From contig NZ_SODD01000017.1 of assembly GCF_004365815.1 (NCBI RefSeq), positions 1-32,000 on the forward strand: DNA of 32,000 bases, read 5' to 3'. Under the pieces are notes generated by a model. That model was not told the origin of the DNA, did no database searches, and was given only the letters and a program-made list of their open reading frames with translations. This DNA comes from Breznakia blatticola (lineage in GTDB: Bacteria > Bacillota_I > Bacilli_A > Erysipelotrichales > Erysipelotrichaceae). Numbering within the stretch: the first letter of the stretch is position 1; every line of letters begins with the position of its first letter. This document shows positions 133 to 31,046 of this stretch, in pieces. A program made the position numbers and the translations under genes.

Positions 133-213
133 GGATTTAATCCTCCCTTCATAATTATTTTTCCTCACGAGAACAATAATAACATGAAGGGTTTTTTATA
201 AAAAAAAGGGGCA

Positions 214-290
214 CCCACACACTAAGTAATGGTGCCTCAAAAAATACCACACATTAAGTAATAGTAATACCACACCCACACATTAAGAAA
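214..290 (+). repeat. Three direct copies of CCACACA(C/T)TAAG(T/A)AA-type motif
   Basis: CCCACACACTAAGTAA starts at 214, CCACACATTAAGTAA at 247 and CCCACACATTAAGAAA at 275. Start-to-start spacing is 33 and 28 bp. Confidence 0.7.
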
Positions 291-313
291 AAGCGCCTTT
301 TTTTGTGGAATAT

Positions 314-349
314 AAAAAACCATTGGTCTGTGGGGGTCCAATGGTTTTT
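314..349. terminator. Strong hairpin flanked by A and T runs (bidirectional terminator-like)
   Basis: AAAAACCATTGG (315-326) pairs with CCAATGGTTTTT (338-349) across an 11-nt loop. It lies between the ISL3 end and nudC. Confidence 0.5.
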
Positions 350-535
350 GCTTTACTTCTATGTAGGGGTTATGAATATTAAATGTGTAAAATCATTAAT
401 TATAAGAAAACATTGAGGGAATATGTTTAATATTCAATATCATAGAAGTTCTATCCACTCTCCTATATAAAGTGGTATTATTATCTTATCATAAATAAAA
501 ATACTTACACTTCATATGATTGAAAAAGTTAAAGT

Positions 536-3516: not shown

Positions 3517-3544
3517 GCAACATTTTTTTAATTAAAACATCCTT
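3517..3544 (+). promoter_or_regulatory. Candidate ECF-type promoter, variant form (GCAACATTT-N13-ATCCTT), upstream of sigma gene 1
   Basis: 7/9 match to CCAACCTTT. The AAC-N17 spacing and the downstream hexamer ATCCTT are identical to the site at 4990-5017. It lies 43 nt upstream of ATG 3587. Confidence 0.3.
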
Positions 3545-3586
3545 CTTCTGTAGAAAAGATTGCGTGTGCGTGAAAGGAAGGACAAA

Positions 3587-4981
3587 ATGAACGAAAGGAT
3601 AGATGTTTCAGTTGTACGAAGATTACAAAATGGGGATATGGGGGCTCTTGAAGAAATTTATAGTTTTTATAAGGGACCATTGTATTACTATGCATTATCG
3701 ATTTTAAGAAATCCGGCTGATGCAGAAGAAGTGATGCAAGATGTAATTTGTACAGTTCAAACAAAGATTAATCAATTACGAAACTCAGAATCGTTTCATT
3801 TCTGGTTATTTAGTATTGCAGGAAATGAATGCAAAGGGAAGCTACGGGCAAAAGACAGGATTATTCAGCCAAACGAGGAACATAATATCGAGGATGTTGT
3901 AATAGCTCCTGATAGTCCTGAAAAAGAATTTGATGACTTGAATATATTAAATGTAATCCTAGCTTCATTTCAAAAACTGAGTGATACCTACAAGGAAACA
4001 GCAGAATTGCGGTTCCTTGGTGGATTATCAATGAAGGAGATTGCAGAGAAGTTAGATGTTTCTCCTAGTTTAGTTAAAAGTAGACTCTATGATATTCGAC
4101 AATATGTTATGGCGGACTTAGAACAACAAGGATATAAGCCAGAAACATACTACAGTGTAGAAGCAGGACCGTTATTATTTGTTCAAATGCAGCAAAGCTA
4201 TGAAGCGATGTCTACGGGAAAAGAAACAACTGAAATAGAGTTAACAGATTATTCGTTTCTACAAGGTGTTTTGCAGGGTGTTTGTCAGTTTGGAAGTCAA
4301 GCTGCTAGTGCAATCGGACAAGTATTGAATGCGATTGAATTTTCAAGCCTAGTTTTATCTAGTCTAACTGTTAGTGCACTTGTTTTACCATCGTTGTTTG
4401 GAATACATGATGAATGGTTAGTTAGTGGTTATGATATATTAACGAAACCGGCAGACATTTGTAGATTTGCGGAAGCAAACGCTTCTGACAATAAAGTCAT
4501 CTATAAAAAGCCAAGTTATGCAAATATAATCGATGTAGTTAAATACTATCAAAATCCGATTGCAGGACCGTTAGAGGTTCGAGTCTATTTGGTAAATGGA
4601 TATCAAAATGAAGATATCAGTATTTTATATGAGGATGAAAAACTCAATTATCAAGTAACGAATGAGTATCTATTATTCTATGCAAGTGTAAACGGACGAT
4701 ATGTCATAAATATTGGTAACGATAAGAAGTATTTTGATATCAACAATATTGATAACGATATCCCAGTTGTGACTTCGATGAACTATACAAAAGGAGTCAT
4801 GCGATTTGAAATAAAAGAATCAAAGAACAAGATAGATTATAAAAAGTCGTACATATTATATAAGGATAAGAAAATTACTTTACCTAAGAGTAAAGTAATT
4901 CATGGAATATATGAGGATGTAATAGAAGTTGTGTTGGTTGATGATAAGGGGAATAAAAATACCTTTAGATTCAATATTTAA
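3587..4981 (+). CDS. ECF-like sigma-70 family sigma factor fused to a TM segment and a C-terminal extracytoplasmic domain (copy 1)
   Basis: ATG 3587 is preceded by AAAGGAAGG, and the N-terminus aligns with the paralogue (MNERIDVSVV vs MNKRIDVTYV). Region 2 is represented by DAEEVMQDVI...FHFWLFSIAGNEC. The region 4 HTH is ELRFLGGLSMKEIAEKLDVSPSLVKSRLY. One hydrophobic span is encoded at nt 4334-4402, followed by a conserved beta-rich C-terminal domain. Confidence 0.85.
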   Translation: MNERIDVSVVRRLQNGDMGALEEIYSFYKGPLYYYALSILRNPADAEEVMQDVICTVQTKINQLRNSESFHFWLFSIAGNECKGKLRAKDRIIQPNEEHNIEDVVIAPDSPEKEFDDLNILNVILASFQKLSDTYKETAELRFLGGLSMKEIAEKLDVSPSLVKSRLYDIRQYVMADLEQQGYKPETYYSVEAGPLLFVQMQQSYEAMSTGKETTEIELTDYSFLQGVLQGVCQFGSQAASAIGQVLNAIEFSSLVLSSLTVSALVLPSLFGIHDEWLVSGYDILTKPADICRFAEANASDNKVIYKKPSYANIIDVVKYYQNPIAGPLEVRVYLVNGYQNEDISILYEDEKLNYQVTNEYLLFYASVNGRYVINIGNDKKYFDINNIDNDIPVVTSMNYTKGVMRFEIKESKNKIDYKKSYILYKDKKITLPKSKVIHGIYEDVIEVVLVDDKGNKNTFRFNI

Positions 4982-4989
4982 AAAACTAT

Positions 4990-5017
4990 CCAACCTTTGA
5001 AGGATTACTAAATCCTT
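4990..5017 (+). promoter_or_regulatory. Candidate ECF-type promoter CCAACCTTT-N13-ATCCTT upstream of surface-protein gene 1
   Basis: Exact shared 9-mer located 9 nt after the sigma stop codon, with the same AAC-N17-RTC spacing as the other three exact copies. Confidence 0.45.
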
Positions 5018-5133
5018 TAGGTGTATAGAAAAATGTGTGTGGAGGTATAGAGATGCAGTGGATTACGTAAATTTAACAAAAAGAAAAATTGAAAAAATGA
5101 AAAGTGAAAGTGTAAATATAAATGGAGGAAATT

Positions 5134-7743
5134 ATGAATAAAGCAAAAAAGTATTTAATGATATGTTTAATTAGTGGTTTATTTTTAACTGGGACAGGAT
5201 TTGCAGATGTAGAGCAACCTGTTGAAGATCCAAAAGAAATAACTGAAGTGACAGATGAAGTAGAAGTTACAGAAACAGAAGAAGAAACTGAAGAAGTAAC
5301 TGTAGATGTAGAACAAATAGAAGAAGAGAAATCAGAACCAAAAGCAGCACTTGTTGCACCAGTTGCAACCGCAACGTTAAGTGCACCGATTACACCGGTG
5401 ACTACTGCTGGGGAAACACGTACGATTACAGCTCAAGGAAATTGGGGTGTTGATTGGGTACTTTACGATGACGGAGAATTGGTGTTAAGTGAAGGAGAGT
5501 TAAGAGCGAGAGGTTCCAATGATACTGCTCCGGGTAATTTTGCGGCGTATAAAGATAGTATTGTGAAAATAACAGTTGATGATTTAGTAAACATTCAAGA
5601 TGGAAAAAACCTATTCGGAAAGTACAAAGCCCTTGAAACCATAGAAGGCGGGACGAATTTTACTTTTATAGGAGCTGACATATCACTATATGAGATGTTT
5701 TATCAGTGCAATAGGTTAAGTAAGCTAGATGTGTCCGGATGGGATACAAAAAATGTAACAAATATGCATGGTATGTTCAACGGTTGTAGTAGTATTGCAT
5801 CATTAGACGTATCTGGATGGGATACAAAAAACGTAACAAGTATGGGTTATATGTTTTCTTGGTGTAAAACTTTAGCAGCCGTAGATGTATCTGGATGGGA
5901 TACAAAAAACGTAACAAACATGAATAGTATGTTTGATTATTGCCATGTTTTAACAGAGCTAGATGTATCTGAATGGGATACAGGAAACGTAACAAGTATG
6001 TCTTATATGTTCCAAAGGTGCGATGAGTTAGTGACATTAGATGTATCTGGATGGGATACAAAAAACGTAACAAATATGAACTATATGTTTACTAGTTGTG
6101 GTTTAAGAACCATAGATGTATCTAAATGGGATACAGGAAACGTAAAACACATGAGTAATATGTTTTCCTCAAGTGATTTCAAAGCGCTAGATTTGTCTGG
6201 ATGGAATACAAAAAATGTAATAAATATGAAAGAAATGTTTAGAAATATGATTAGTCTAAGAACGCTAGATTTATCTGGATGGGATACAAGTAGTGTAATA
6301 TATAAGGATTATATATTTAAAAATAATATGATTTATACAATCGCGTTGGGTGAAAATTCAATTTTTTCTGGATGGGACACACTGCTTACAGAAAATTGGA
6401 TGTCACCTACTCCAAGTTGGCGTACTGAAAGATGGATAGGATTAACAACAGGAAACGTTTACAACGATTCTGATGAATTCATGGAAAATTATGATGGCTC
6501 AATTCCAGACACATACCAATGGGAATACTTGGTGAGTATTAATTTTGATTTAAATGGTGGAGATAGAAACCCATTAATATCAACCAAAACTATTAATCAA
6601 TTATCTACAGTTTCATCAATTATAAAAGATATTCCAAATCCAACAAAGAAAGGACATGAATTTCTAGGGTGGGAAATAGTTGGTGATTTGGCATGGGACA
6701 TGGAAACAACCACACCGCATGGCTATGCTTCTAGTAATGACTTGAATATAGAAGAAATGGCTACAACTCCAATTAATCTAAAGGCAAAATGGAAAGCTAA
6801 AGAATACAACATCATTTACAACTTAGATGGCGGTGAAAATGCAACAACTAACCCAACTGGATACACATATGGAGTTGGAGTAAAATCATTCGAAGAACCA
6901 ACAAAAGAAGGGCACACATTCTTAGGTTGGTACAGTGATGCAGACTTCACAACAGAAGTAACATCTATTTCAGAGACACAATTAGAAGACGTAATATTAT
7001 ATGCAAAATGGAAAGCCAATGATTACACAATTAACTATGAATTAGACGGAGGGGCAAATACTTCAGAAAATCCACTAGGATACACCTTTGGTGTAGGGGT
7101 TAAAGCGTTTAAAGCACCAACAAAAGTAGGATTTACATTTGAAGGATGGTACAGTGATGCAGACTTCACAACAGAAGTGACAAATATTAGTGAAACACAG
7201 ATGGAAGATGTAACTCTATACGCAAAATGGGAACTTAACCGTTATACCATCACATATGAACTAGACGGTGGAGAAAACCACAAAGATAACTCAGCAGGAT
7301 TTGCATTTGGTGAAGGCGTAGAAAAACTAGAAGAACCAACAAAAGCTGGATACACATTCTTAGGATGGTTTGATGCACAAACTGGTGGAAATGAAGTAGT
7401 AAAAATCGCGAAAGAAAGAAACGAAGACATTACGCTTTATGCTCGCTGGAAACAAAACCCACAAGAACCAATAGTAAACCCAGATAAAGATAAAGAAAAT
7501 CCAACTGAAAATACACCAAATGATAACAACACAGTAATTAATGCTGATGAAAGTGATAATGGAAGTACTACAGAAAATGTAGTAAACAACCCAAACGTAG
7601 CTCCAGAATTTAACGGTTCGACAGCAAACGTTTCTGGTTCTGTTCAAACAGGTGATGAAACCAACATTATGACTTTATACGTTTTATTAGGATTAGCATT
7701 ATTAAGTGGTGGTATGATTACCAGAAGAAAACTGAAAAAATAG
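5134..7743 (+). CDS. Secreted surface protein with BspA/DUF285-type 26-residue LRRs, Listeria-Bacteroides (Flg_new) repeats and a sorting-signal-like tail (copy 1)
   Basis: ATG 5134 follows TGGAGGA. The signal peptide is MNKAKKYLMICLISGLFLTGTGFA. There are eight D(V/L)SxW(D/N)TxNVxxMxxMF repeats and four Y.I.Y.LDGG...GW...LYAKW modules. A P/N-rich stalk leads to SVQTGDETN, a hydrophobic span and RRKLKK. Confidence 0.9.
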   Translation: MNKAKKYLMICLISGLFLTGTGFADVEQPVEDPKEITEVTDEVEVTETEEETEEVTVDVEQIEEEKSEPKAALVAPVATATLSAPITPVTTAGETRTITAQGNWGVDWVLYDDGELVLSEGELRARGSNDTAPGNFAAYKDSIVKITVDDLVNIQDGKNLFGKYKALETIEGGTNFTFIGADISLYEMFYQCNRLSKLDVSGWDTKNVTNMHGMFNGCSSIASLDVSGWDTKNVTSMGYMFSWCKTLAAVDVSGWDTKNVTNMNSMFDYCHVLTELDVSEWDTGNVTSMSYMFQRCDELVTLDVSGWDTKNVTNMNYMFTSCGLRTIDVSKWDTGNVKHMSNMFSSSDFKALDLSGWNTKNVINMKEMFRNMISLRTLDLSGWDTSSVIYKDYIFKNNMIYTIALGENSIFSGWDTLLTENWMSPTPSWRTERWIGLTTGNVYNDSDEFMENYDGSIPDTYQWEYLVSINFDLNGGDRNPLISTKTINQLSTVSSIIKDIPNPTKKGHEFLGWEIVGDLAWDMETTTPHGYASSNDLNIEEMATTPINLKAKWKAKEYNIIYNLDGGENATTNPTGYTYGVGVKSFEEPTKEGHTFLGWYSDADFTTEVTSISETQLEDVILYAKWKANDYTINYELDGGANTSENPLGYTFGVGVKAFKAPTKVGFTFEGWYSDADFTTEVTNISETQMEDVTLYAKWELNRYTITYELDGGENHKDNSAGFAFGEGVEKLEEPTKAGYTFLGWFDAQTGGNEVVKIAKERNEDITLYARWKQNPQEPIVNPDKDKENPTENTPNDNNTVINADESDNGSTTENVVNNPNVAPEFNGSTANVSGSVQTGDETNIMTLYVLLGLALLSGGMITRRKLKK
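5728..6320 (+). repeat. Tandem 75-78-bp coding repeats (LRR units)
   Basis: The 31-nt core GTATCTGGATGGGATACAAAAAACGTAACAA is identical at 5809, 5887 and 6043. Diverged copies lie at 5731, 5965, 6118, 6193 and 6271. Confidence 0.85.
6802..7458 (+). repeat. Three tandem 219-bp coding modules (Flg_new / Listeria-Bacteroides repeat)
   Basis: Module starts at 6802, 7021 and 7240 are exactly 219 bp apart. They share long identical stretches such as TGGTACAGTGATGCAGACTTCACAACAGAAGT. Confidence 0.85.
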
Positions 7744-7844: not shown

Positions 7845-8585
7845 CTTAAAATATCCGTGGGGTGCTTTTACCCCACGGATTATTGTATAAATAATACCCC
7901 CAGATAATCTGGGGGTCCCGATAGGCTTTAGCGGAGTGGTAACGAAAAAACCCTCCTGTATAATTGAGGTGCGGCATAGCAACTGCATCCAACAATAAAT
8001 ACAAGGAGGAAATGTCAATGAATAACAATGACGTACATAGTTTAGCACATAGCAAGTGGTGCTGCAAATACCATATCGTATGGGCACCGAAATACAGGAG
8101 GAAAGTATTTTACGATAGTAAAAGATTAGAAATAGGAAAAATAATAAGAGATCTTTGTGAATGGAAAGGTGTAAATATACTTGAAGCAGAAGTGTGTGTA
8201 GATCACATCCATGTATTAGTAGAAATTCCTCCGAAATATAGCATATCTGGATTTATGGGATATTTAAAAGGAAAAAGTAGTCAGATAATCTATGAGAAAT
8301 GGGGAAATATGAAATTCAAATATCGAGGTCGCTCTTTCTGGTGTAGAGGATATTACGTTGATACGGTAGGGAAAAACACCAAGAAAATAACAGAATATAT
8401 ACAGAATCAACTGAAAGAGGACCGTGAGGCAGAACAATTAACAATGAATTTGAAAGATCCGTTTGGAAAGTAGCGTGCAAGACGCATAGGCGAAGCCAAA
8501 TGAAATAAAACCCCTTTAGGGGTGGCTGTTGGAGGAGGGCTATGCCCGCACAGTAAAATACCACCGGCTAAGCCGGTGGATATTT
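7845..8585 (+). mobile_element. IS200/IS605-family element (tnpA only), boundaries approximate
   Basis: Y1 transposase gene flanked by subterminal hairpins. Upstream: ATCCGTGGGGT-gctttt-ACCCCACGGAT (7853-7880) and ACCCCCAGA-taa-TCTGGGGGT (7896-7916). Downstream: CCACCGGC-taa-GCCGGTGG (8561-8579). The size is typical of IS200. Confidence 0.6.
8018..8473 (+). CDS. tnpA: IS200/IS605 family Y1 (HUH) transposase TnpA
   Basis: AAGGAGGA SD before ATG 8018. HUH motif in VDHIHVLVEIPP and the catalytic-Tyr region ITEYIQNQ. The length is 152 aa. Confidence 0.9.
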   Translation: MNNNDVHSLAHSKWCCKYHIVWAPKYRRKVFYDSKRLEIGKIIRDLCEWKGVNILEAEVCVDHIHVLVEIPPKYSISGFMGYLKGKSSQIIYEKWGNMKFKYRGRSFWCRGYYVDTVGKNTKKITEYIQNQLKEDREAEQLTMNLKDPFGK

Positions 8586-8630: not shown

Positions 8631-9992
8631 TTAACCTTTCTGGTTTTTCTTTTTGTATTTCCCTCGGTTTTTACCTGGTTTTTTGATTTCTTTTTTGTGC
8701 TTAGTTAAAGAAAACTTTTCGAATTGATTTTGTGAAAATATAATACGATTCCTCGCTCTGTCAAAGTTACGAAATCCATTTGCATTACTTAATATTTTCT
8801 TCACGTAGTTGTTCTTTCCTTCAATTGGACCATTGGACAATCTACGACCATTAATCCAAACGAAAGAGTTTAATATTTCTTTCTTCCAATTCATTAGGGT
8901 ATTGGCACAGTAAGTGAACTCTTTGATATCAGAGGTTTCCATTGCTTCAATGATACTCTCAAGCTGTATTCTAGTTTTCTTTGCATTATGCGTAAGTTCT
9001 TCTTGATCATTGAATTGAATATACATTTCCTTTAGTTGATAGGCAACTCTTAGATCTACATCTATTTTTAAGATTTCTTCGAGTACTCGATTCTCATTTG
9101 TATGAAAGCCAAGAATCCTGTCATAGTAAAATGCATCTGAGTTAATATTGTCTCTATTCTTTAAAATGATTTTGTATCTATACTTTAATAACTTGTATTC
9201 CTTACTATCGTGAGTATCGTTGTATTTTCTCATGATACGTTTTCTTACGATATTTAGAGAATCATTAATTTTCTTCACAACGTGAAATGGGTCAACGCAA
9301 ACAGATGCTTCTTTAAAGAATATACTAGCTAAATCACAATAGTTCTTATACATATCGATAATTACGTAATCAACGTTATTACGTTCCTCTCTTGGGATTG
9401 AATAAAAATAACTGTTTAAAAATTGAGTATGTCTAGACTCCAAAATATCTAAGATGATTTTCTTTTCAAAATCCATGATCATAAAGGCATATTTGTATTT
9501 AGAGTGGCTATTGAAATAGAACTCATCTAAACAAATAATTCTACTTAACTTCTTACGTGGTATTTGAACGTAACTATCAAACACGTCAACGACTTTTGAT
9601 ACAGATATATGATATCTTCTGGCAACATCAGAAAATGTTGAATTATATGGTCGCAAATCATTTAATATGCTTATAATTGAATAGGAAGATATTTTTGTTT
9701 GGTCCTTCAAAGTGAATGGGTTACTTTCAGTGAAGGAAGCACGGCAATGCTTACATAAATATCTTCTACAATTATAAAAAATTGTTGTTTCCCGATTCAG
9801 TAAAAATGAATGGGAAATTTTTCTTTTGGTGTAACCTTTGACATACATTGTTTCTTTATCGCATTTTGGACAGTAGTGAACTTTCTTTTTTAATGTTAAC
9901 TCTAAGTTGAAATCCTCTAACGATTTAACTTCTTCTATTTGATCGTATGCCTCTTCAGAAAGAGCTAAAGCTTTCATTATAAATTTCTTCAT
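8631..9992 (-). CDS. ISL3 family transposase
   Basis: 453-aa ORF with GAGGAGGAAA SD. It has an N-terminal zinc-finger pattern (CPKCDKET...CKHC), an HTH region and a long DDE-type catalytic region typical of ISL3 transposases. Confidence 0.9.
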   Translation of the reverse strand: MKKFIMKALALSEEAYDQIEEVKSLEDFNLELTLKKKVHYCPKCDKETMYVKGYTKRKISHSFLLNRETTIFYNCRRYLCKHCRASFTESNPFTLKDQTKISSYSIISILNDLRPYNSTFSDVARRYHISVSKVVDVFDSYVQIPRKKLSRIICLDEFYFNSHSKYKYAFMIMDFEKKIILDILESRHTQFLNSYFYSIPREERNNVDYVIIDMYKNYCDLASIFFKEASVCVDPFHVVKKINDSLNIVRKRIMRKYNDTHDSKEYKLLKYRYKIILKNRDNINSDAFYYDRILGFHTNENRVLEEILKIDVDLRVAYQLKEMYIQFNDQEELTHNAKKTRIQLESIIEAMETSDIKEFTYCANTLMNWKKEILNSFVWINGRRLSNGPIEGKNNYVKKILSNANGFRNFDRARNRIIFSQNQFEKFSLTKHKKEIKKPGKNRGKYKKKNQKG

Positions 9993-16213: not shown

Positions 16214-19200
16214 GTCTAAATCAAGAACAACAACGTGCAGTTGCTGCTAGAAATACGAATATTCTTGTATCTGCAAGTGCTGGTGCTGGAAAAACAAAAG
16301 TTTTGATTGAACGACTCATGTCTTTAATCACACAAGATAAAGTAGAAGTTAGTGAAATACTTGCTATGACTTTTACAGAAGCGGCAGCAGCAGAGATGAA
16401 AAAGCGACTTGCAGCATCTCTATCAAGTACGTACGAACAAACAAAGGATCCATTTCTAAAAGCGCAACTGGCAAATTTAGAAAGTGCAAACATCTCAACA
16501 ATTCATGGATTTTGTTTGCGTATTTTAAAAGAATATTACTACATGATTGATCTACCTAAAAAACGTGTCAATCATCCATTAGATGAACAACAAGCAAGTA
16601 TGCTAAAAACAAATGCACTAGAAAGTGTACTAGCATATGCCTACCAACAACCATGGTTTCCAAGCTTCGTGGAAGTTTTTAGTGATCGACCAGAATCATT
16701 AGGAACTTTGGAAGCATCCATCAATCAATATGCAAATGTGGTAAATGCAAAAGCAGATCCACAAGCATATATAAAACACTGTATGGATTACTACAAACCT
16801 ATTGATACAATTGCACAGTTACCTAAAGATATTCAACACTATTTCTTTCAAGGAATCGAACTAGAACTAGATGTACTTATTGATGCACTAACACAAGTAG
16901 AATTTGAATATAGTGATGAAAGTAATCTTGTAAAAGAAGAACGTTACCAGAAAGCAAAGGCTGCCATTCTTGCACGTGATTATGAAAGTTATCGTGCAGT
17001 ATTAAAAGCAACGGTGCAACTAAAAAGTCCAGCCAAAACCAAAAGTGCATATTATACGACAATTGCAGAAGTGGAAGATCGTTTACTGCAACAAGCATTT
17101 AGTGAAAAAGAGTATGTGAGTTTCCATAATGCAAATGTTGAAGTAATGCATCACTTTATTGAGTTAACCCAAATGTTTCTTGCGCATTATGAAAAAGAAA
17201 AGCAAGAATACGAGTGTATTGATTTCTCGGATATGGAACACTATGCAATTGCTATACTACAAGCAAAAGGTGGGCATGTCGCAAATCTTTTAAAGCAACA
17301 GTTTAAAACGATCATGGTAGATGAATTCCAAGATAGTAATGATGTTCAAGATACACTAATTAAACTCATTGCGAAAGAGGATAATGTCTTCCGTGTTGGT
17401 GATATTAAACAATCTATTTATGGATTTCGTAATGCTTCACCAGAAATTATGAAAGGCTTTATCGATACACCTGATGCAAAAAATGAAGTGATTTTCTTTA
17501 AGTACAATTATCGTAGTAAAGAAAGTATTGTAGAGTTTACCAATCAATACTTCAAGGCACTGATGAATATTGAAGGACTTTCTTCATCTTATGAAAGTGA
17601 TGATGTTGTTAGTGTGGGTCGTGACCAACAAAAGGAAAATAATGTACCTGTGCAAATTCACATTATTGATAAGAACTTAAAGAAATCAGATGCATGGGCA
17701 GAAACACCAAATGATTTAACGACTTCATATATTGCTAATCAAATTCTAAAAATAAAAGCAGAAAAAGGATATGCATTTAAAGACTTCGCGATTTTAGTTC
17801 GTGGCAATGCTAAAATGAAAAGCATTAACGAAGAATTAAGTGAACTAGGAATTCCATGTTTTTATGCAAATGCAGAAGACTTCTATAAAAATGTAAGTAT
17901 TACATCCGTTATTTCTTTTGTTAAGGCGTTGGTGAATATGCATGATGATCATAATTTTATTGCTTTATGTACATCTTGTTTCTATCAAATTCCTGCAAAT
18001 GATCTAGCAAAAGCAAAACTAGAAAAAGCTGAAGATAGTAGTTATGCAACGTATTTTGAAAATGATGAACGACTTGCATCTTTCTATGAATTACGTGAAC
18101 ACATTTACAAACAACCTGTTTCAAAAGTGATGAAAAGCATCTATGATATTAACGATTTCTATATGTCGTATACGACGTTACAAGATAAAGCAAACTTGGA
18201 TTTACTTTATGAAATTGTATGTCAGAAAGAACAAGAAGAGGCAATGGGAATTCAGGGCTTCTTACGTTATATTGAGCAAGTACAAAATCTAAAAGTACCA
18301 GAAGCATTTCCATTAGGTGAAGGAGATGATGTCGTTCGTTTGATGACGATACATAAATCCAAAGGATTGGAATTTAAAGTTGTCTTCTTAGTAAGCTCAC
18401 AAAACAAGAATGCACAATCCAATTTTCTAGCAACAGATGATGAACTTGGAATTGCAGTTGACTATGTGGATGCCAAAAACTATCAGATTTATAATGATAT
18501 TAGTAAAATTGCAATTAAGAATAAACAGTATCTTAATTCACTTGAAGAAGAACTACGTGTTTTGTATGTTGCTATTACGCGAGCGGAGTGTGAGATGCAT
18601 GTTGTAGGAACGGGAAATGAAACCGAAATACTTGATGCAAACTTCCAGAACTTCTACAATACCAAAGGGTTTATATGGTGGATGCGTATGGGGTTACATG
18701 ATGTTGATGCATCGTTATACCACATTGAGTATGTTGATGAAGTGTGGACAAATCAAACACAAGAAACAAAGAAAATGGAATACACGCAAACATATTACGA
18801 TAAACAAGCAAGTGAAGTTGTATTTGCTTCACCAAGTGATAGTGAAACATTTGTGCAAAAACCACAGCCATTCTCTTTACAAGAGGATGTCGGCTTTGAA
18901 AGAGGGAGCAATCTTCACCGTATGGTAGAAGTCTTACCTAATACAACTTGGGATGATGCATTGCTAACACAAGTAGCAAATGCAGAAGCGATTACATTGC
19001 ATGCACATGATATGCAAGTCTTACAAAAACTACAAAATGAGCAGTTGTATCAGCAAGCATCAAGTTTTCATGAAGTGTATCATGAGTTTGCATTTATGGT
19101 TAAAGATGATCAAGAAATCATGCATGGATATATGGATTATCTTGCAATTGATGAAACCGATGTAATTATGATTGATTTTAAAAGTGATCGTGGAGTAGAT

Positions 19201-26574: not shown

Positions 26575-26807
26575 ATGATCACTCCTTTTTATCTTCATTA
26601 TTATACATCAGAGTGATTGGATTGGTGATATAAATCTTATATTTTAGTAGTTTATGATAGAAAAGGATAATAAAAACAGTGATAATTTATGATGTAATTT
26701 AGCTAAGAAATTATATATGAATACTCTTTATATCATATTGATTGTCATGCTTTACAACACATGCACACAATAATAAAATAGCCCTTGTGTGAATTTTTAA
26801 AAAGTGT

Positions 26808-26835
26808 CCAACCTTTTGGACTTTAAAAAGTCTTA
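26808..26835 (+). promoter_or_regulatory. Candidate ECF-type promoter CCAACCTTT-N13-GTCTTA upstream of sigma gene 2
   Basis: Exact shared 9-mer with the same AAC-N17-RTC spacing. It ends 31 nt upstream of ATG 26866. Confidence 0.45.
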
Positions 26836-26865
26836 CGTATATGATGTGTGAATGAGGAGTTTTAA

Positions 26866-28161
26866 ATGAACAAACGGATAGATGTAACTTATGTGCGAAA
26901 GTTACAAGAAGGAGACCTTACTGCCTTGGAGGAAATATATCGTTTTTACCAAGGGCCAATATATTATTATGCACTTTCAATTTTGAAAAATAAGCACGAT
27001 GCAGAAGAAGTTATGCAGGAAGTGGTGTATAAAGTGCAAACAAGAATTCATCAATTAAAGAATCCAGAGTCTTTTCATTTCTGGATGTTTTCTATTGCAT
27101 CAAATGAATGTACTTCACGGTTGCGTGTACGTAAGCGATTCATCCAAACCGATGAAGAAAACACACTTGAAGAGGTGATAAAAGCAAAAAATAACCAAAT
27201 TAATGATTTTAATAATTCGACACTAATGGGTGCAATATTAAATTCATTTCAAAAATTAAGTGAGAATAATCGAAGGACAGCTGAACTACGTTACTTGAGT
27301 GGACTAACTTTAGAAGAAATCGCAAAAGCAACACATGTGGAAACGAAAACTGTAAAGAGTAGGTTGTATGAAGTACGAAAGATGGTCTCAAGTGACTTGA
27401 AAGAGCAAGGTTATCATCCACGTAAATATTTTACATTTTTGGGGATTCCACTGTTTTATAAGGAAATGCAGTTAACTTTTCTTAAAGAGCGAAATAAAGT
27501 TCTATTAAAGGACTATTCGTCAATGCAAACATTGATGCAAATTATCACTAATGCAGAAAAGATTAGTCTATTTTTAAGTTGTGCAATTGCATCGGTAGTA
27601 ATAACTCCCGTAATACCAGCAATAGTTAACGTTCCAACAAATGATTTGATTGTACTTCCTGCAACTGCATCAAACATTCAGTATAAAAAGTCTGATCGTA
27701 TAGGTGTTATTGATACAATCTCATATATTCAAAATCCAATTGCTGGTCCTTTAGAAGTACGGGTGTATGTATACGATATGTCAAAAATAGAAAATATCTC
27801 TATTACTTATGAAGGTATTGAATGTAACTATCAAAAATATGAGACTTATGTAGGTATAAACGTTGTTAAAAATGGAAGATATCACGTACGAATAAATAAT
27901 GATGAAAAGTTTTTTGACGTAACAAATATTGATTATGATATTCCGATTGTTGAAAGATTGGATTTTTATGATGATTCATTTGAAATCGTTGTTAAGGTAA
28001 CTGTGAATCAAGTAGATGTTGAGAAGTCGTATCTATTGATTGATCAACAAAGAGTATCGTTTCCAAAAGATTTTATTGTGTCTGTGAAAGATGCAGAAAA
28101 TGTCGATGTGATCTTAGTTGATGATAAAGGAAATGAAAATTGCTTTAATTTTAAAAAATAA
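26866..28161 (+). CDS. ECF-like sigma-70 family sigma factor fused to a TM segment and a C-terminal extracytoplasmic domain (copy 2)
   Basis: GAGGAG SD. Region 2 is represented by DAEEVMQEVV...FHFWMFSIASNEC. The region 4 HTH is ELRYLSGLTLEEIAKATHVETKTVKSRLY. One hydrophobic span is encoded at nt 27562-27627. The C-terminal domain shares IQNPIAGPLEVRVYV, NGRYHVRINNDEKFFDVTNIDYDIPIV and LVDDKGNENCFNF with copy 1. Confidence 0.85.
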   Translation: MNKRIDVTYVRKLQEGDLTALEEIYRFYQGPIYYYALSILKNKHDAEEVMQEVVYKVQTRIHQLKNPESFHFWMFSIASNECTSRLRVRKRFIQTDEENTLEEVIKAKNNQINDFNNSTLMGAILNSFQKLSENNRRTAELRYLSGLTLEEIAKATHVETKTVKSRLYEVRKMVSSDLKEQGYHPRKYFTFLGIPLFYKEMQLTFLKERNKVLLKDYSSMQTLMQIITNAEKISLFLSCAIASVVITPVIPAIVNVPTNDLIVLPATASNIQYKKSDRIGVIDTISYIQNPIAGPLEVRVYVYDMSKIENISITYEGIECNYQKYETYVGINVVKNGRYHVRINNDEKFFDVTNIDYDIPIVERLDFYDDSFEIVVKVTVNQVDVEKSYLLIDQQRVSFPKDFIVSVKDAENVDVILVDDKGNENCFNFKK

Positions 28162-28162
28162 A

Positions 28163-28190
28163 CCAACCTTTAAAAGGTAAGTGCGTCGTA
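28163..28190 (+). promoter_or_regulatory. Candidate ECF-type promoter CCAACCTTT-N13-GTCGTA upstream of surface-protein gene 2
   Basis: Exact shared 9-mer starting 2 nt after the sigma stop. The -10 region reads CGTCGTA, the best match to the classical ECF AAC/CGTC layout. Confidence 0.5.
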
Positions 28191-28289
28191 CTGGTAAGGA
28201 TATATATGTGTGAGGAGGTAGCAATGATCAAGAGAAGAAAAGTGTAAATGTTTTAACAAAAGTTATGTGTGAAAATAAAGGAGGAAACT

Positions 28290-30716
28290 ATGTTAAAAAG
28301 AAATAAAAAATTTTTAGTTTTATTAATAGCAGTTATGTTTATTACAAGTACTGGTTTTACTGATGAAGTACAACCAAACGAAATCAATGAACCAATTGAA
28401 GATGAACAAACGACTTACGAAGAGAAAGTATTAGAAGATGAAAAAGAAGACACCAATGTATTTATAGTAGATGAAGAAAATACAACGCAAGAAGACGTTG
28501 TAGAAAAAAGTATGAATAATTTGACTCGTGCTACTGATGAAAGAGTCATATATGCACAAGATAATATTGGAGTTGAATGGATATTGTATGCTGATGGAGA
28601 ATTGGTTATCCATGGTGGTACCATCAATATCATTACAGATTCAAGCAAACGATACTTCAAACAATATTCAGATATTATCACCTCTATTACCTTCGCTGGA
28701 GATGTATACTATACACGCCCAGATGGAGGACTTGGTAACTATATGTTTGCTGACTTAAAAAACTTAGTAACTGTGAATAATTTTGATCGATTTAAATTAA
28801 GTGGAGATGCATCTGGATTATTTATAGCGTGTGAAAAGTTGAAAAATATCGATACAACAAATTTTGCCACTGACAATATTACAAATTTTACAATGATGTT
28901 TTCCTATTGTGAGTCACTTGAGTATATAAATGTAAGTAATTGGAATGTAGATAACGTAACATCTATGTGGTCAATGTTTAGTCATTGCTATTCATTAAGA
29001 GAAATCGATATATCACAATGGACGTTTAAAAATGCAACTGATATTTCCTATGTGTTTTATAGATGTCGAGAATTGTTAGAACTTGATTTTTCTAGTATGG
29101 ATCCAGTTAATGAAGTCACTAAGGAAAAGATGCTTGGTAGTGAGCTAGCAAGCTCAATGAGAAACAAACTGCGTAAAATAACACTTGGTAAAACCGCACT
29201 AGGTGCTAATACAGATATATATGCCAGAGATTGGAGAGAACTTGATACAGGCATCGTTCATTCGGCTAAATTTTTGGATACACACGATACAAGTAAAACA
29301 ATTACCTATATTTGGGATGCGAAGCATGCAGTTTTCTATAATCCAGCAGGTGGAACATTGACTGGTCCTGCAAAAGAGGAAGTTGATGTTATAGAAAGTT
29401 CATTTACTAAACCAACAGACCCAACACATGAGCATGCTACATTTGTAAGATGGTTTACTTCAAGATGGGATTATGATAAAAAAGAGCTTATTTATGAAGA
29501 ATGGGACTATAGTAGTATTCCAGTTCTAAACATGCCTTATACTACTGAAGTGTATGCAGAGTGGGACTACGATACTTATAAAATTTCATATGAATTAAAT
29601 GGTGGAACGATTAGTCAATTATATCCAACAGAATACAAGTATAATACAGAAGTACGGGGATTTAACACTCCATCTAAGGAGGGATATTTCTTCCTTGGAT
29701 GGTATGATGCAAATGAGGGTGGTAACAAAGTAACTTCGATTAGTTCAACAGAATTTGGTGATAAAAAACTATATGCACGTTGGTCTCCTAGAATGTATCA
29801 AATAACTTATGAACTAGATGGCGGAACAAACCACGACTCAAATCCAAGTTCATATGCATACGATACAGGTGTGAGCAAACTTGAAAATCCAACGAAAGAA
29901 GGATATACATTCATTGGATGGTTTGATGATGTAAATGAAGGTAATCAAATTACAAGCATCGATAAAAAGTCAAAAGAACATGTAACGATTTATGCACGCT
30001 GGATGGCAAATCAATATGCAATCATTTATGAGCTAAATGGTGGAATTAATGATACAAATAATCCGACTTCATATGCTTACGAACTAGGGGTAGACACATT
30101 TGAAGAGCCGACAAAATATGGACATACTTTTTTGGGATGGTATGATGCACCTGAAAAAGGTAATCAAATCACAAATATAGCGAAAGATTCTATTGGTCAT
30201 AAAACACTATATGCAAAATGGAAAGTAAATGATTACAAGGTAAACTATGAGTTAGATGGTGGAATAAACTCCCTTGATAATCCAATGCAATATACATACG
30301 GTATTGGAGTGAGTGAATTTGAAAAACCGAATAAAGAAGATTACACATTTATTGGTTGGTTTAATGCAGCAGAAGATGGAAAAGAGATTACTAATATTGA
30401 TGGTTCAACTGCTGAAGATGTAACATTATATGCACGTTGGAAAAAGAACGAGAAACCTACACCTCCTAGTGAAGAACCATCAAAACCTATTGAAAAACCA
30501 AATGACGATAAAAACAGTAATACAAATATAACCGATACAAATAATGACAAAGCAAATGTGAATGCAAGTGTAGCTCCTACTTTTAGCGGAACACAAGCAA
30601 ACGCACAAACTCCGGTTGATACAAGTGATAGTGTGAATCGAGATGCTCTATTATATGTTGGTATAATTTCGTTGTTATCGATTGTAGTTTTATTAAAAAG
30701 AAAACATTCAATTTAA
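28290..30716 (+). CDS. Secreted surface protein with degenerate BspA/DUF285-type LRRs, Listeria-Bacteroides (Flg_new) repeats and a sorting-signal-like tail (copy 2)
   Basis: ATG 28290 follows AAAGGAGG. Signal peptide MLKRNKKFLVLLIAVMFITSTGFT. LRR units such as NVSNWNVDNVTSMWSMFSHCYSL. Five Y.I.YELxGG...GW...YA.W modules. PVDTSDSVN is followed by a hydrophobic span and KRKHSI. Confidence 0.9.
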   Translation: MLKRNKKFLVLLIAVMFITSTGFTDEVQPNEINEPIEDEQTTYEEKVLEDEKEDTNVFIVDEENTTQEDVVEKSMNNLTRATDERVIYAQDNIGVEWILYADGELVIHGGTINIITDSSKRYFKQYSDIITSITFAGDVYYTRPDGGLGNYMFADLKNLVTVNNFDRFKLSGDASGLFIACEKLKNIDTTNFATDNITNFTMMFSYCESLEYINVSNWNVDNVTSMWSMFSHCYSLREIDISQWTFKNATDISYVFYRCRELLELDFSSMDPVNEVTKEKMLGSELASSMRNKLRKITLGKTALGANTDIYARDWRELDTGIVHSAKFLDTHDTSKTITYIWDAKHAVFYNPAGGTLTGPAKEEVDVIESSFTKPTDPTHEHATFVRWFTSRWDYDKKELIYEEWDYSSIPVLNMPYTTEVYAEWDYDTYKISYELNGGTISQLYPTEYKYNTEVRGFNTPSKEGYFFLGWYDANEGGNKVTSISSTEFGDKKLYARWSPRMYQITYELDGGTNHDSNPSSYAYDTGVSKLENPTKEGYTFIGWFDDVNEGNQITSIDKKSKEHVTIYARWMANQYAIIYELNGGINDTNNPTSYAYELGVDTFEEPTKYGHTFLGWYDAPEKGNQITNIAKDSIGHKTLYAKWKVNDYKVNYELDGGINSLDNPMQYTYGIGVSEFEKPNKEDYTFIGWFNAAEDGKEITNIDGSTAEDVTLYARWKKNEKPTPPSEEPSKPIEKPNDDKNSNTNITDTNNDKANVNASVAPTFSGTQANAQTPVDTSDSVNRDALLYVGIISLLSIVVLLKRKHSI
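29577..30445 (+). repeat. Four tandem 219-bp coding modules (Flg_new repeat), plus a degenerate fifth upstream
   Basis: Conserved Tyr codons at 29577, 29796, 30015 and 30234 are exactly 219 bp apart. Confidence 0.85.
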
Positions 30717-30815
30717 TGACTAAGGACTTTGTAGTAAATACTATGAAGTCTTTTTTGTTGAATCAAGGGGATTCTCGATAAATTGAAAAATAAAGTGATT
30801 TTCCTTACGAAAAAT

Positions 30816-30843
30816 CCAACCTTTTTCAAATATATGCATCTAA
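30816..30843 (+). promoter_or_regulatory. Orphan copy of the candidate ECF-type promoter (CCAACCTTT-N13-ATCTAA)
   Basis: Exact shared 9-mer and spacing, 100 nt after the adhesin 2 stop. No ORF with an SD follows before the hairpin at 31007-31046. Confidence 0.35.
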
Positions 30844-31006
30844 TTAATAGAAGGTAATTAGATTATTATTCTTCTTAGGATAGCCTATGTCCTACAAACT
30901 TCCTTATAAAACACACACATAAACACACAAACGGAAAAACACTAGGCGGGTATTTTATACCAAGTACAATTGAGGGATTGTACACTACTTACTATTTAGG
31001 TAAGTA

Positions 31007-31046
31007 AAAAGGTCAACTTTGCATGTATATGTTAAGTTGACCTTTT
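31007..31046. terminator. Long hairpin, terminator-like
   Basis: AAAAGGTCAACTT pairs with AAGTTGACCTTTT (13-bp stem, 14-nt loop). Confidence 0.55.

Follow-up and report, generated by a model that had tools for sequence, protein, structure and literature searches.

Predicted extracytoplasmic function sigma-dependent promoters of membrane-anchored sigma genes and adjacent adhesin genes in Breznakia blatticola

The stretch of DNA considered here (the window, positions 1 to 32,000 of contig NZ_SODD01000017.1, 32 kb in all) comes from the cockroach-gut bacterium Breznakia blatticola and carries two cassettes, each consisting of a sigma factor gene followed by the gene of a large surface adhesin. 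The same 9-mer, CCAACCTTT, recurs in the intergenic DNA of both, and the question that this locus raises is what reads it and to what end. We propose, with a probability of roughly 0.8 and on the grounds of sequence comparison, that CCAACCTTT is the -35 element, and the triplet RTC (R, A or G) the -10 core, of promoters recognized by the cognate extracytoplasmic function (ECF) sigma factors, and that these promoters very probably drive each sigma gene as well as the adjacent surface-adhesin gene. A mini-regulon composed of self and adjacent adhesin had been predicted for this DNA in an earlier note, and it emerges from our comparisons as the best reading. All of the evidence is computational, and the motif counts given below cover both strands of the window.

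Exact copies of CCAACCTTT occur at 4990, 26808, 28163 and 30816, all four on the plus strand and all intergenic, and there is no other on either strand of the window. Dinucleotide-preserving shuffles contain 0.23 copies on average and none of 100 shuffles reached four, which bears out the claim that such a set is rare by chance. Variants with one or two mismatches show no overall enrichment (120 observed versus 104 expected), so that the signal is confined to the exact copies and their context. The extended pattern CAACNTTT-N13-RTC, which was written only after the sites had been seen, finds five matches (3518, 4991, 26809, 28164 and 30817) where 0.24 are expected, a number attained by 0 of 100 shuffles; the match at 3518 confirms the 7/9 variant with identical spacing that had been described 5' of sigma gene 1. 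It had also been stated that RTC follows 17 nucleotides after AAC in each copy. This holds at all sites, but two hexamers had been swapped: GTCTTA belongs to the copy at 26808 and GTCGTA to that at 28163. The five sites are as follows.

3517 to 3544, plus strand: predicted ECF-type promoter of sigma gene 1; -35 GCAACATTT at 3517-3525, -10 ATCCTT at 3539-3544; 43 nucleotides 5' of the sigma 1 ATG at 3587
4990 to 5017, plus strand: predicted ECF-type promoter of adhesin gene 1; -35 CCAACCTTT, -10 ATCCTT at 5012-5017; 9 nucleotides 3' of the sigma 1 stop codon and 117 nucleotides 5' of the adhesin 1 ATG at 5134
26808 to 26835, plus strand: predicted ECF-type promoter of sigma gene 2; -35 CCAACCTTT, -10 GTCTTA at 26830-26835, ending 31 nucleotides 5' of the sigma 2 ATG at 26866
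28163 to 28190, plus strand: predicted ECF-type promoter of adhesin gene 2; -35 CCAACCTTT, -10 GTCGTA at 28185-28190; predicted start at about 28196-28197; 2 nucleotides 3' of the sigma 2 stop codon and 100 nucleotides 5' of the adhesin 2 ATG at 28290
30816 to 30843, plus strand: orphan ECF-type promoter (fourth copy of the 9-mer); -35 CCAACCTTT, -10 ATCTAA at 30838-30843; flanked by the adhesin 2 terminator (30722-30753) and another hairpin

The layout of these sites is that of a well-studied class of promoters. Escherichia coli sigmaE (RpoE, ECF02) recognizes GGAACTTTT and (T/C)GGTCAAAA, with a discriminator of 5-6 nucleotides, an A/T-rich UP region and a strong preference for 16 nucleotides between GGAACTT and TCAAA (PMC1312014), and GGAACTT-N16-TCAAA is equivalent to AAC-N18-TC, that is, to the AAC-N17-R-TC of the window. 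Both systems share an AAC-core -35 element followed by a T-run (GGAACTTTT versus CCAACCTTT), a GTC/TC-type -10 element and an A/T-rich upstream tract; the window subfamily differs in having CC rather than GG before AAC, and in its Gram-positive host. The -10 core of sigmaE is GTC and is read by a swappable specificity loop (PMC6648896), and ECF sigma factors in general are usually autoregulated and recognize group-specific promoters (PMC7826278).

The element recurs beyond B. blatticola. A word-indexed search recovered only six close relatives of the sigma proteins, whereas a profile of their ectodomain recovered 19 proteins at E<=0.001, including sigma 2 of the window, bringing the family to a total of 24, with Breznakia species and gut metagenomes as sources. 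When 1.84 billion representatives clustered at 50% identity were searched exhaustively with a profile, more than 150 full-length members were recovered. A full-length-alignment search of genome contigs yielded mostly generic ECF sigmas, with Breznakia sp. PF5-3 (L008) as the sole full-length relative, and an ectodomain-alignment scan of JGI metagenome contigs gave no matches. We compared ten other cassettes, whose sigmas are 20-45% identical, and in all ten at least one very large surface-protein gene comes after the sigma gene. Together with the window, the bipartite element (A-tract, AAC -35, then TC) is thus found across 12 cassettes, upstream of the sigma gene or operon as well as of the surface-protein gene; in the other cassettes TC follows AAC at 18-19 nucleotides, and an A-run lies just 5' of the -35 element at nearly all sites. 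Sites 5' of the sigma gene or operon occur in the window (twice) and in L001, L004, L008, L088, L089, L090, L091 and L092, on the coding strand throughout. The elements of the individual loci read:

L001: GTTCAAACT...ATATCTAAC, twice
L004: TCCAACATT...CCGTCATATAG, twice
L007 (Erysipelotrichaceae MTC7): CCAACCTTT 5' of the adhesin gene
L008: GTGAAC...GCGTCATAC, one such site, 5' of the sigma gene
L088: TGAACCC...ATCTTAC
L089: TGAACCA...TCAACTAAT, twice
L090: TGAACCA...[G/A]TCTAACC
L091: GAACCAAT...CTCTA[A/G]ATAG
L092: GTGAACGAAAT...TGTCTAAAT, twice

The AAC core is present in the -35 element of all five window sites and of all 14 sites from other loci that were used for training (see below), in the contexts CCAAC, GCAAC, TCAAAC and TGAAC. 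The spacing is AAC-N17-[A/G]TC in the window subfamily and AAC-N18-[A/G/C]TC in the distant subfamily (L008 and L088-L092), with two exceptions, namely L089, where AAC stands in place of xTC, and the L007 adhesin site, which has TAC.

What ties the element to the neighbouring sigma factor is the behaviour of its -10 block. Within the window, ATCCTT is found at both promoters of cassette 1 and GTC[T/G]TAC at both promoters of cassette 2; from base composition, AAC-N17-ATCCTT is estimated to occur in a 300-nucleotide upstream region with a chance of about 0.002. When the two promoters of each of nine cassettes were compared, identity of the 10-nucleotide -10 block amounted to 0.73 within a cassette versus 0.35 between cassettes (permutation p<5e-5, also when permutation was restricted to subfamilies), and that of the -35 block to 0.74 versus 0.53 (p = 0.0006; subfamily-restricted p = 0.07), whereas the 12-nucleotide spacer was no more alike within than between cassettes (0.33 versus 0.32, p = 0.37). 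The -10 block co-varies with the cassette in eight of nine cases and the spacers do not. Since a recent promoter duplication would keep the spacer alike, it does not explain these pairs, and retention of both recognition blocks with a -10 element that changes by cassette is what co-evolution of a cognate sigma factor with its promoters would predict. Judged from these sequences, the cassette-specific -10 argues for cognate, partly insulated specificity. The possible cross-talk between the two paralogous sigmas that had been suggested previously therefore needs to be narrowed: the cassette-specific -10 blocks speak against free cross-talk, but the shared -35 element leaves room for a limited one. 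No simple correspondence was seen between the residues neighbouring the sigma2 FH.W motif and the -10 variant.

A two-block matrix trained on the 14 sites from other loci only was then used to scan 63,886 positions of the window, and ranked 28165 first (17.9 bits), 30818 second (17.6 bits) and 26810 third (13.8 bits). Taken together with the sigmaE-preferred spacing and the recurrence in ten other cassettes, this upholds the ECF-type layout that the earlier note had assigned to the motif. In leave-one-locus-out scans, the known sites were among the six best matches reported per locus, and new sites appeared upstream of sigma operons (L088 2224, L092 4423) and before further surface-protein genes (L004 9177 and 9463, L008 8493). 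The nine matches that reach 17 bits all fall between genes and on the coding strand, and 14 of the 18 matches that reach 14 bits are likewise intergenic.

Several observations weigh against our interpretation. The site at 4992 scores only 10.2 bits with the foreign-trained matrix, limited by its -10 block (the -35 block alone gives 11.9), and the sigma 1 site at 3519 is not recovered by this matrix; the two sites score low because the ATCCTT -10 is unique to cassette 1, and the 3517 site is, given this poor score, the weakest of the five. In L007, the -35 9-mer of the adhesin site is accompanied by TAC where RTC would be expected for the -10, and GCAACATTT upstream of the sigma gene is followed by no -10 element at any plausible spacing. 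Selection of the additional sites in other loci began by eye, guided by the AAC...TC idea, and the bias that this introduces is removed only in part by the leave-one-locus-out scan. A few equally high matrix matches fall inside genes, for example window 16835 and L004 8582. In the window, 16830-16862 (plus strand, in an addA-like gene, 13.2 bits) and 27959 (minus strand, antisense in sigma 2, 12.5 bits) are comparable to the true site at 26810; these matches are probably due to chance and show the level of false positives. Finally, no anti-sigma domain was found in the linker of the sigma proteins, so that the self-inhibition and proteolytic release proposed below are analogies.

Other explanations of the motif have to be considered. 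ECF-type promoters might be read by a different ECF sigma, or by any paralogue indiscriminately, instead of by the neighbouring one. In keeping with this, the -35 9-mer is identical at three of the four cassette promoters of the window and in the orphan copy, the orphan -10 ATCTAA is that of neither cassette of the window but is similar to ATCTAAC, the L001 type, and B. blatticola encodes at least four sigma paralogues (P0005 being the fourth). We nevertheless regard it as improbable, because covariation of the -10 block, and not of the spacers, with the cassette is expected if the neighbouring sigma does the reading, and because the element lies 5' of its own sigma operon in every cassette examined. 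Very unlikely, in our view, is a half operator of a dimeric regulator, an alternative that was derived from the palindromes ACCTTT-A-AAAGGT and GTCCAA-CCTT-TTGGAC. Both palindromes are present as described, and at three window sites and the adhesin site of L007 the element overlaps with short inverted repeats (CCTTTGAAGG, ACCTTTAAAAGGT, GTCCAACCTTTTGGAC, CCAACCTTTTTGG), but their centre and arms differ at every site and none is seen at 30816, at 3517, in L004, in L001 or at any site of the distant subfamily. Moreover, the spacer, where a second half-site would lie, is at background identity, and the conservation lies in another block, which is found at a fixed distance of 17-18 nucleotides and has the signature of an ECF -10 element; with palindromes that vary in position and are absent from most sites, the regulator alternative finds no support.

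That the copies are functionless leftovers of a duplication, or belong to an intergenic or mobile repeat, could be argued from the paralogy of the cassettes and from the IS200/IS605 and ISL3 elements right after adhesin 1. However, the sigmas of the two cassettes are 42% and the adhesins 32% identical, and at such distances neutral intergenic DNA should not align, yet four short blocks survive as the only alignable non-coding DNA, namely the 9-mer, the RTC block, an (A)TGTGTG.GGAGG leader block and the true ribosome-binding site. Flank alignments reveal no extended repeat of the repetitive extragenic palindrome (REP) or miniature inverted-repeat transposable element (MITE) kind around the 9-mers, and an element of the same spacing recurs in cassettes whose sigmas are 20-30% identical. 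A repeated element, which the earlier note had likewise kept in view, is thus hardly to be believed. Equally far-fetched would be ordinary housekeeping (sigma-70/SigA) promoters: TGGACT-17-TATGAT does overlap the sigma 2 site and TTTACA-17-TAAAAT lies about 50 nucleotides upstream of it (26742-26779, plus strand, 10/12 matches), but sigma-70-like hexamer pairs were reported at none of the other four sites, matches of this type in the promoter regions are at or below shuffle expectation, and the conserved bases AAC and TC differ from TTGACA/TATAAT. The match at 26742-26779 could nonetheless provide basal expression of sigma 2.

The products of the two cassettes accord with promoters read by their own ECF sigmas. 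The genes concerned are:

3587 to 4981, plus strand: sigma gene 1, 464 amino acids from the ATG at 3587 (open reading frame (ORF) opening at 3560); P0003, which is annotated as a B. blatticola sigma factor
5134 to 7743, plus strand: adhesin gene 1; signal peptide, DUF285/PARCEL repeats, four Flg_new (Listeria-Bacteroides) repeats, C-terminal hydrophobic anchor
26866 to 28161, plus strand: sigma gene 2, 431 amino acids; P0001, 100% identity
28290 to 30716, plus strand: adhesin gene 2 (ORF opening at 28269); signal peptide, BspA-type leucine-rich repeats/DUF285, five Flg_new repeats, C-terminal hydrophobic anchor
30722 to 30753, plus strand: intrinsic terminator of adhesin gene 2; 14-pair stem, then TTTGTTG

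Both sigma proteins match Pfam Sigma70_r2, Sigma70_r4_2 and Sigma70_ECF, with regions 2 and 4 and without region 3 or 1.1, and score 81-87 bits against TIGR02937 (cut-off 42.9). The designations as sigma and surface-protein genes, made originally from the letters alone, are therefore sound. Neither protein qualifies as one of the named ECF equivalogs (SigW, SigM, SigV, SigX, SigY, RpoE and others), whose equivalog and subfamily models give 45-85 bits versus cut-offs of 124-243. Next to region 4 comes a conserved linker some 50 residues long, which contains a GY.P.KY motif and for which a single helix (193-224) is predicted; after it there are one hydrophobic segment (residues 255-273 in sigma 1, 236-254 in sigma 2) and about 155 further residues. 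A single hydrophobic 19-mer at around residues 235-270 (Kyte-Doolittle 1.66-2.3) was detected in six of the seven members scored; that of P0014 (1.33) falls under the threshold of 1.6. AlphaFold predicts for sigma 2 a confident sigma domain and, at residues 278-431, two beta-sandwich domains with a predicted local distance difference test (pLDDT) score of about 90, and the best PDB matches found by Foldseek are SigW/RsiW, AlgU/MucA and sigmaE/RseA for the N-terminal part and tandem Ig/FN3 domains for the C-terminal part. Between the sigma4 domain and the membrane helix, no Pfam or NCBIfam match to an anti-sigma domain (FecR, ZAS zinc finger, RskA) was obtained. As modelled, the protein is a one-component signalling protein made of an ECF sigma, a linker, one membrane helix and two extracellular Ig/FN3-like domains.

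We therefore propose the following model, in which the mode of activation and the nature of the signal are what we infer from related systems. The membrane-tethered sigma would be inactive, possibly self-inhibited by its linker, until a surface signal sensed by the ectodomain triggered its proteolytic release, in a manner resembling regulated intramembrane proteolysis of IutY or of anti-sigma factors. The freed sigma would bind core RNA polymerase and initiate at its own promoter, giving rise to positive autoregulation, and would also fire the second promoter right after its own stop codon, thereby boosting the adjacent adhesin gene. Owing to the shared cassette-specific -10 block, each paralogue would mainly drive its own pair, and the further copy after adhesin 2 would drive a short non-coding RNA.

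How does this compare with known systems? Like sigmaE, the Breznakia sigmas would be autoregulated, as predicted for the window, and sigmaE also drives the small RNAs (sRNAs) MicA, RybB and MicL, which feed back on envelope protein synthesis (PMC1312014, PMC6648896). In contrast to sigmaE, they are fused to their own anchor and ectodomain instead of being paired with a separate RseA, and their predicted targets are the adjacent adhesin genes, not a dispersed stress regulon. Fusions of sigma and anti-sigma functions are known from IutY (ECF243), which is released by Prc and RseP, and from actinobacterial ECF48/52/53, for which the same mode of action is predicted (PMC8999054). The Breznakia proteins share with IutY of Pseudomonas putida and with ECF48/52/53 (e.g. 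SCO4117) a C-terminal transmembrane segment and an extracytoplasmic sensor domain; however, the FecR-type anti-sigma module and TonB-dependent receptor partner of IutY have no counterpart in them, and where ECF48/52/53 display a zinc-finger anti-sigma domain and proline-rich or carbohydrate-binding regions, they have a tandem Ig/FN3-like beta-sandwich. By analogy, they may thus resemble fusion ECFs in their working, but since no FecR, ZAS or RskA domain was detected, we do not class them in those groups.

The SigI/RsgI system of Clostridium thermocellum offers another parallel, with paralogous, autoregulated sigma/sensor sets in a Firmicute, paralogue-specific promoters, surface or extracellular targets and an extracellular ligand (PMC4711584). 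Unlike the Breznakia proteins, SigI is not an ECF sigma and uses promoters of the type CCC..AAA / CGWA, its sensor and sigma are separate, and its cellulosomal targets are dispersed. The closest Firmicute precedent for the proposed release step is SigV/RsiV of Bacillus subtilis, where ligand binding leads to site-1 cleavage by signal peptidase and then to cleavage by RasP, although RsiV is a separate anti-sigma with a lysozyme-binding domain, unlike the one-protein sigmas of Breznakia. In L088 (2224-6317), the sigma gene is the last of an operon that also encodes a bactofilin-domain protein, a 306-amino-acid protein and an S26 signal peptidase, in this order, and the ECF-type promoter precedes the first gene. 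The position of the S26 gene directly upstream of the sigma gene is compatible with site-1 cleavage by signal peptidase, and the tethered sigma may have its site-1 protease in the product of this gene. The window yielded no S26 peptidase gene among ORFs of at least 150 amino acids, seven of which were covered by the Pfam scan.

The kind of promoter described here is textbook; what appears to be new is the sigma family, the pairing of cassette-specific promoters and the candidate sRNA discussed below. We found no description of this sigma family in the literature, and the circuit likewise appears undescribed. The analysis provides a testable regulatory map for single-protein membrane-anchored ECF sigmas located beside large adhesin genes in insect-gut Erysipelotrichaceae. 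If it is true, extracellular cues would switch on surface adhesins of gut symbionts via sensor-sigma proteins made of one polypeptide. The cassette-specific -10 variants would furthermore represent a natural set of related, apparently insulated sigma/promoter pairs, useful for studying the evolution of the ECF -10 specificity-loop code and as orthogonal parts for synthetic biology.

This leaves the copy at 30816. It had been placed in the gap after adhesin 2, which is correct as to position, but it does not seem to be a spare copy, for it heads a predicted non-coding, terminated transcript. No ORF with a ribosome-binding site was found 3' of it, and the following 200 or so nucleotides fold with z = -5.8 relative to shuffles, leave a CA-rich stretch unpaired and end in a 13+4-bp hairpin. 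The promoter at 9177 of L004 heads a comparable transcript of about 170 nucleotides (9205-9375, plus strand; z = -4.6, strong terminator). The two RNAs align, with a 5' hairpin that has changes on both arms (AGAAGG/CTTCTT versus AGAGGGT/ACCCTC), followed by unpaired CUUCCUU and ACACA(C)AU. Searches against Rfam 15 assigned no family to the site-4 transcript at gathering thresholds (at E<=1 only chance matches of miRNA models to the terminator hairpin) and none to the whole window. The RNA and the leaders to which it may pair are:

5033 to 5070, plus strand: leader motif AUGUGUGUGGAGG of adhesin 1 at 5033-5045, then a 5-codon mini-ORF at 5053-5070, within the 117-nucleotide leader
26843 to 26859, plus strand: leader motif GAUGUGUGAAUGAGGAG, containing the Shine-Dalgarno sequence of sigma gene 2
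28206 to 28271, plus strand: adhesin 2 leader, with AUGUGUGAGGAGG at 28206-28218, a 7-codon mini-ORF at 28224-28247 and a second UGUGUG at 28266-28271, immediately 5' of the true adhesin 2 Shine-Dalgarno sequence
30850 to 31046, plus strand: candidate sigma-dependent sRNA of about 200 nucleotides; 5' hairpin, unpaired CA-rich segment with CUUCCUU (30899-30905), ACACACACAU (30911-30920) and ACACACA (30923-30929), terminator hairpin at 31006-31046, then CCAUUAU

CUUCCUU...ACACACAU of the orphan RNAs is complementary to the UGUGUG-GGAGG leader of sigma and adhesin genes, including all four cassette genes of the window. In the cassette leaders, GTGTG occurs 15 times in 1,107 nucleotides versus 0.72 expected and is present in eight of ten leaders, and CACAC is found 0 times in them versus five times in the two orphan RNAs. 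The GTGTG-rich block, with a (pseudo-)Shine-Dalgarno GGAGG immediately 3' of it, is found at 3562-3572, 5033-5045, 26843-26859, 28206-28218 and 28266-28271 as well as in the L001 and L004 leaders; since TGTGTG is not enriched window-wide (23 versus 22.3 expected), only its placement in leaders is unusual. The mini-ORFs of the adhesin leaders encode MQWIT (5053-5070) and MIKRRKV (28224-28247) and lie far upstream of the real starts.

When a 43-nucleotide seed of the window RNA was paired with the 130-nucleotide upstream regions of 21 window genes, the four cassette genes came out best (-20.9 to -19.1 kcal/mol), ahead of the next gene (-17.2) and of random windows (-9.6 +/- 3.9), and the L004 seed forms a contiguous duplex over the sigma gene from Shine-Dalgarno to AUG (-26.5 versus a background of -10.2 +/- 5.3). 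This seed-restricted test was, however, designed after the complementarity had been seen, and full-length RNAduplex predictions for the site-4 and L004 RNAs with the leaders were not better than with random genomic segments (z +0.6 to -1.06), in a test that permits unrealistically long, looped duplexes. With a post-hoc test on one side and a negative one on the other, we rate it as doubtful, though worth stating, that the fourth copy is an ECF-dependent sRNA promoter whose RNA would pair with the UGUGUG-GGAGG leaders over the Shine-Dalgarno region and feed back on the cassettes. If this were true, it would provide a Gram-positive parallel to sigmaE with MicA, RybB and MicL and, in combination with paralogue-specific -10 elements, self-contained, mutually insulated modules of sensor-sigma, adhesin and feedback sRNA in Erysipelotrichaceae. 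A further orphan promoter is found in L092 (10041-10075), where a second copy of GTGAACGAAAT...TGTCTAAAT together with the same first 14 transcribed bases follows right after the surface-protein gene; no called gene lies behind it on that strand, and its transcript is not CA-rich.

Some neighbouring features deserve mention. The 3' side of adhesin 1 is occupied by an IS200/IS605 element (Y1 transposase at 7964-8473, flanking hairpins at 7853-7916), with an ISL3 transposase nearby (8631-9992, minus strand), and these insertion sequence (IS) elements may have taken the place of an original neighbour of cassette 1, such as a counterpart of the site-4 RNA. At window 200-355 (plus strand) there are three CCACACA[C/T]TAAG[T/A]AA repeats, the first in the loop of a GGCACC/GGTGCC hairpin, followed by terminator-like hairpins at about 295 and at 320-355; on the minus strand the repeats read UGUGUGG and precede an ISL3-like transposase gene that is cut off by the left end of the window. 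No Rfam match was found in this repeat region (120-540 searched), which could represent a further RNA of the CA-motif kind or the end of an IS.

Members of the distant subfamily always have an additional gene, of about 390-440 codons and with faint Flg_new matches in its product, that separates the giant surface-protein gene from the sigma gene and often adjoins the latter without a gap; it is absent from the window subfamily. The C-terminal anchors of the surface proteins (window 7600-7743 and 30590-30716, and the corresponding gene ends in L088 and L089) are not of the LPXTG type. They carry S/T-V-x-x-G-D-x-T-[N/D] (SVQTGDETN, SVAAGDTTD, TVAAGDATN; PVDTSD as a variant in adhesin 2), behind which come a hydrophobic helix and then a basic tail, and this recurring signal may be a lineage-specific sorting signal.

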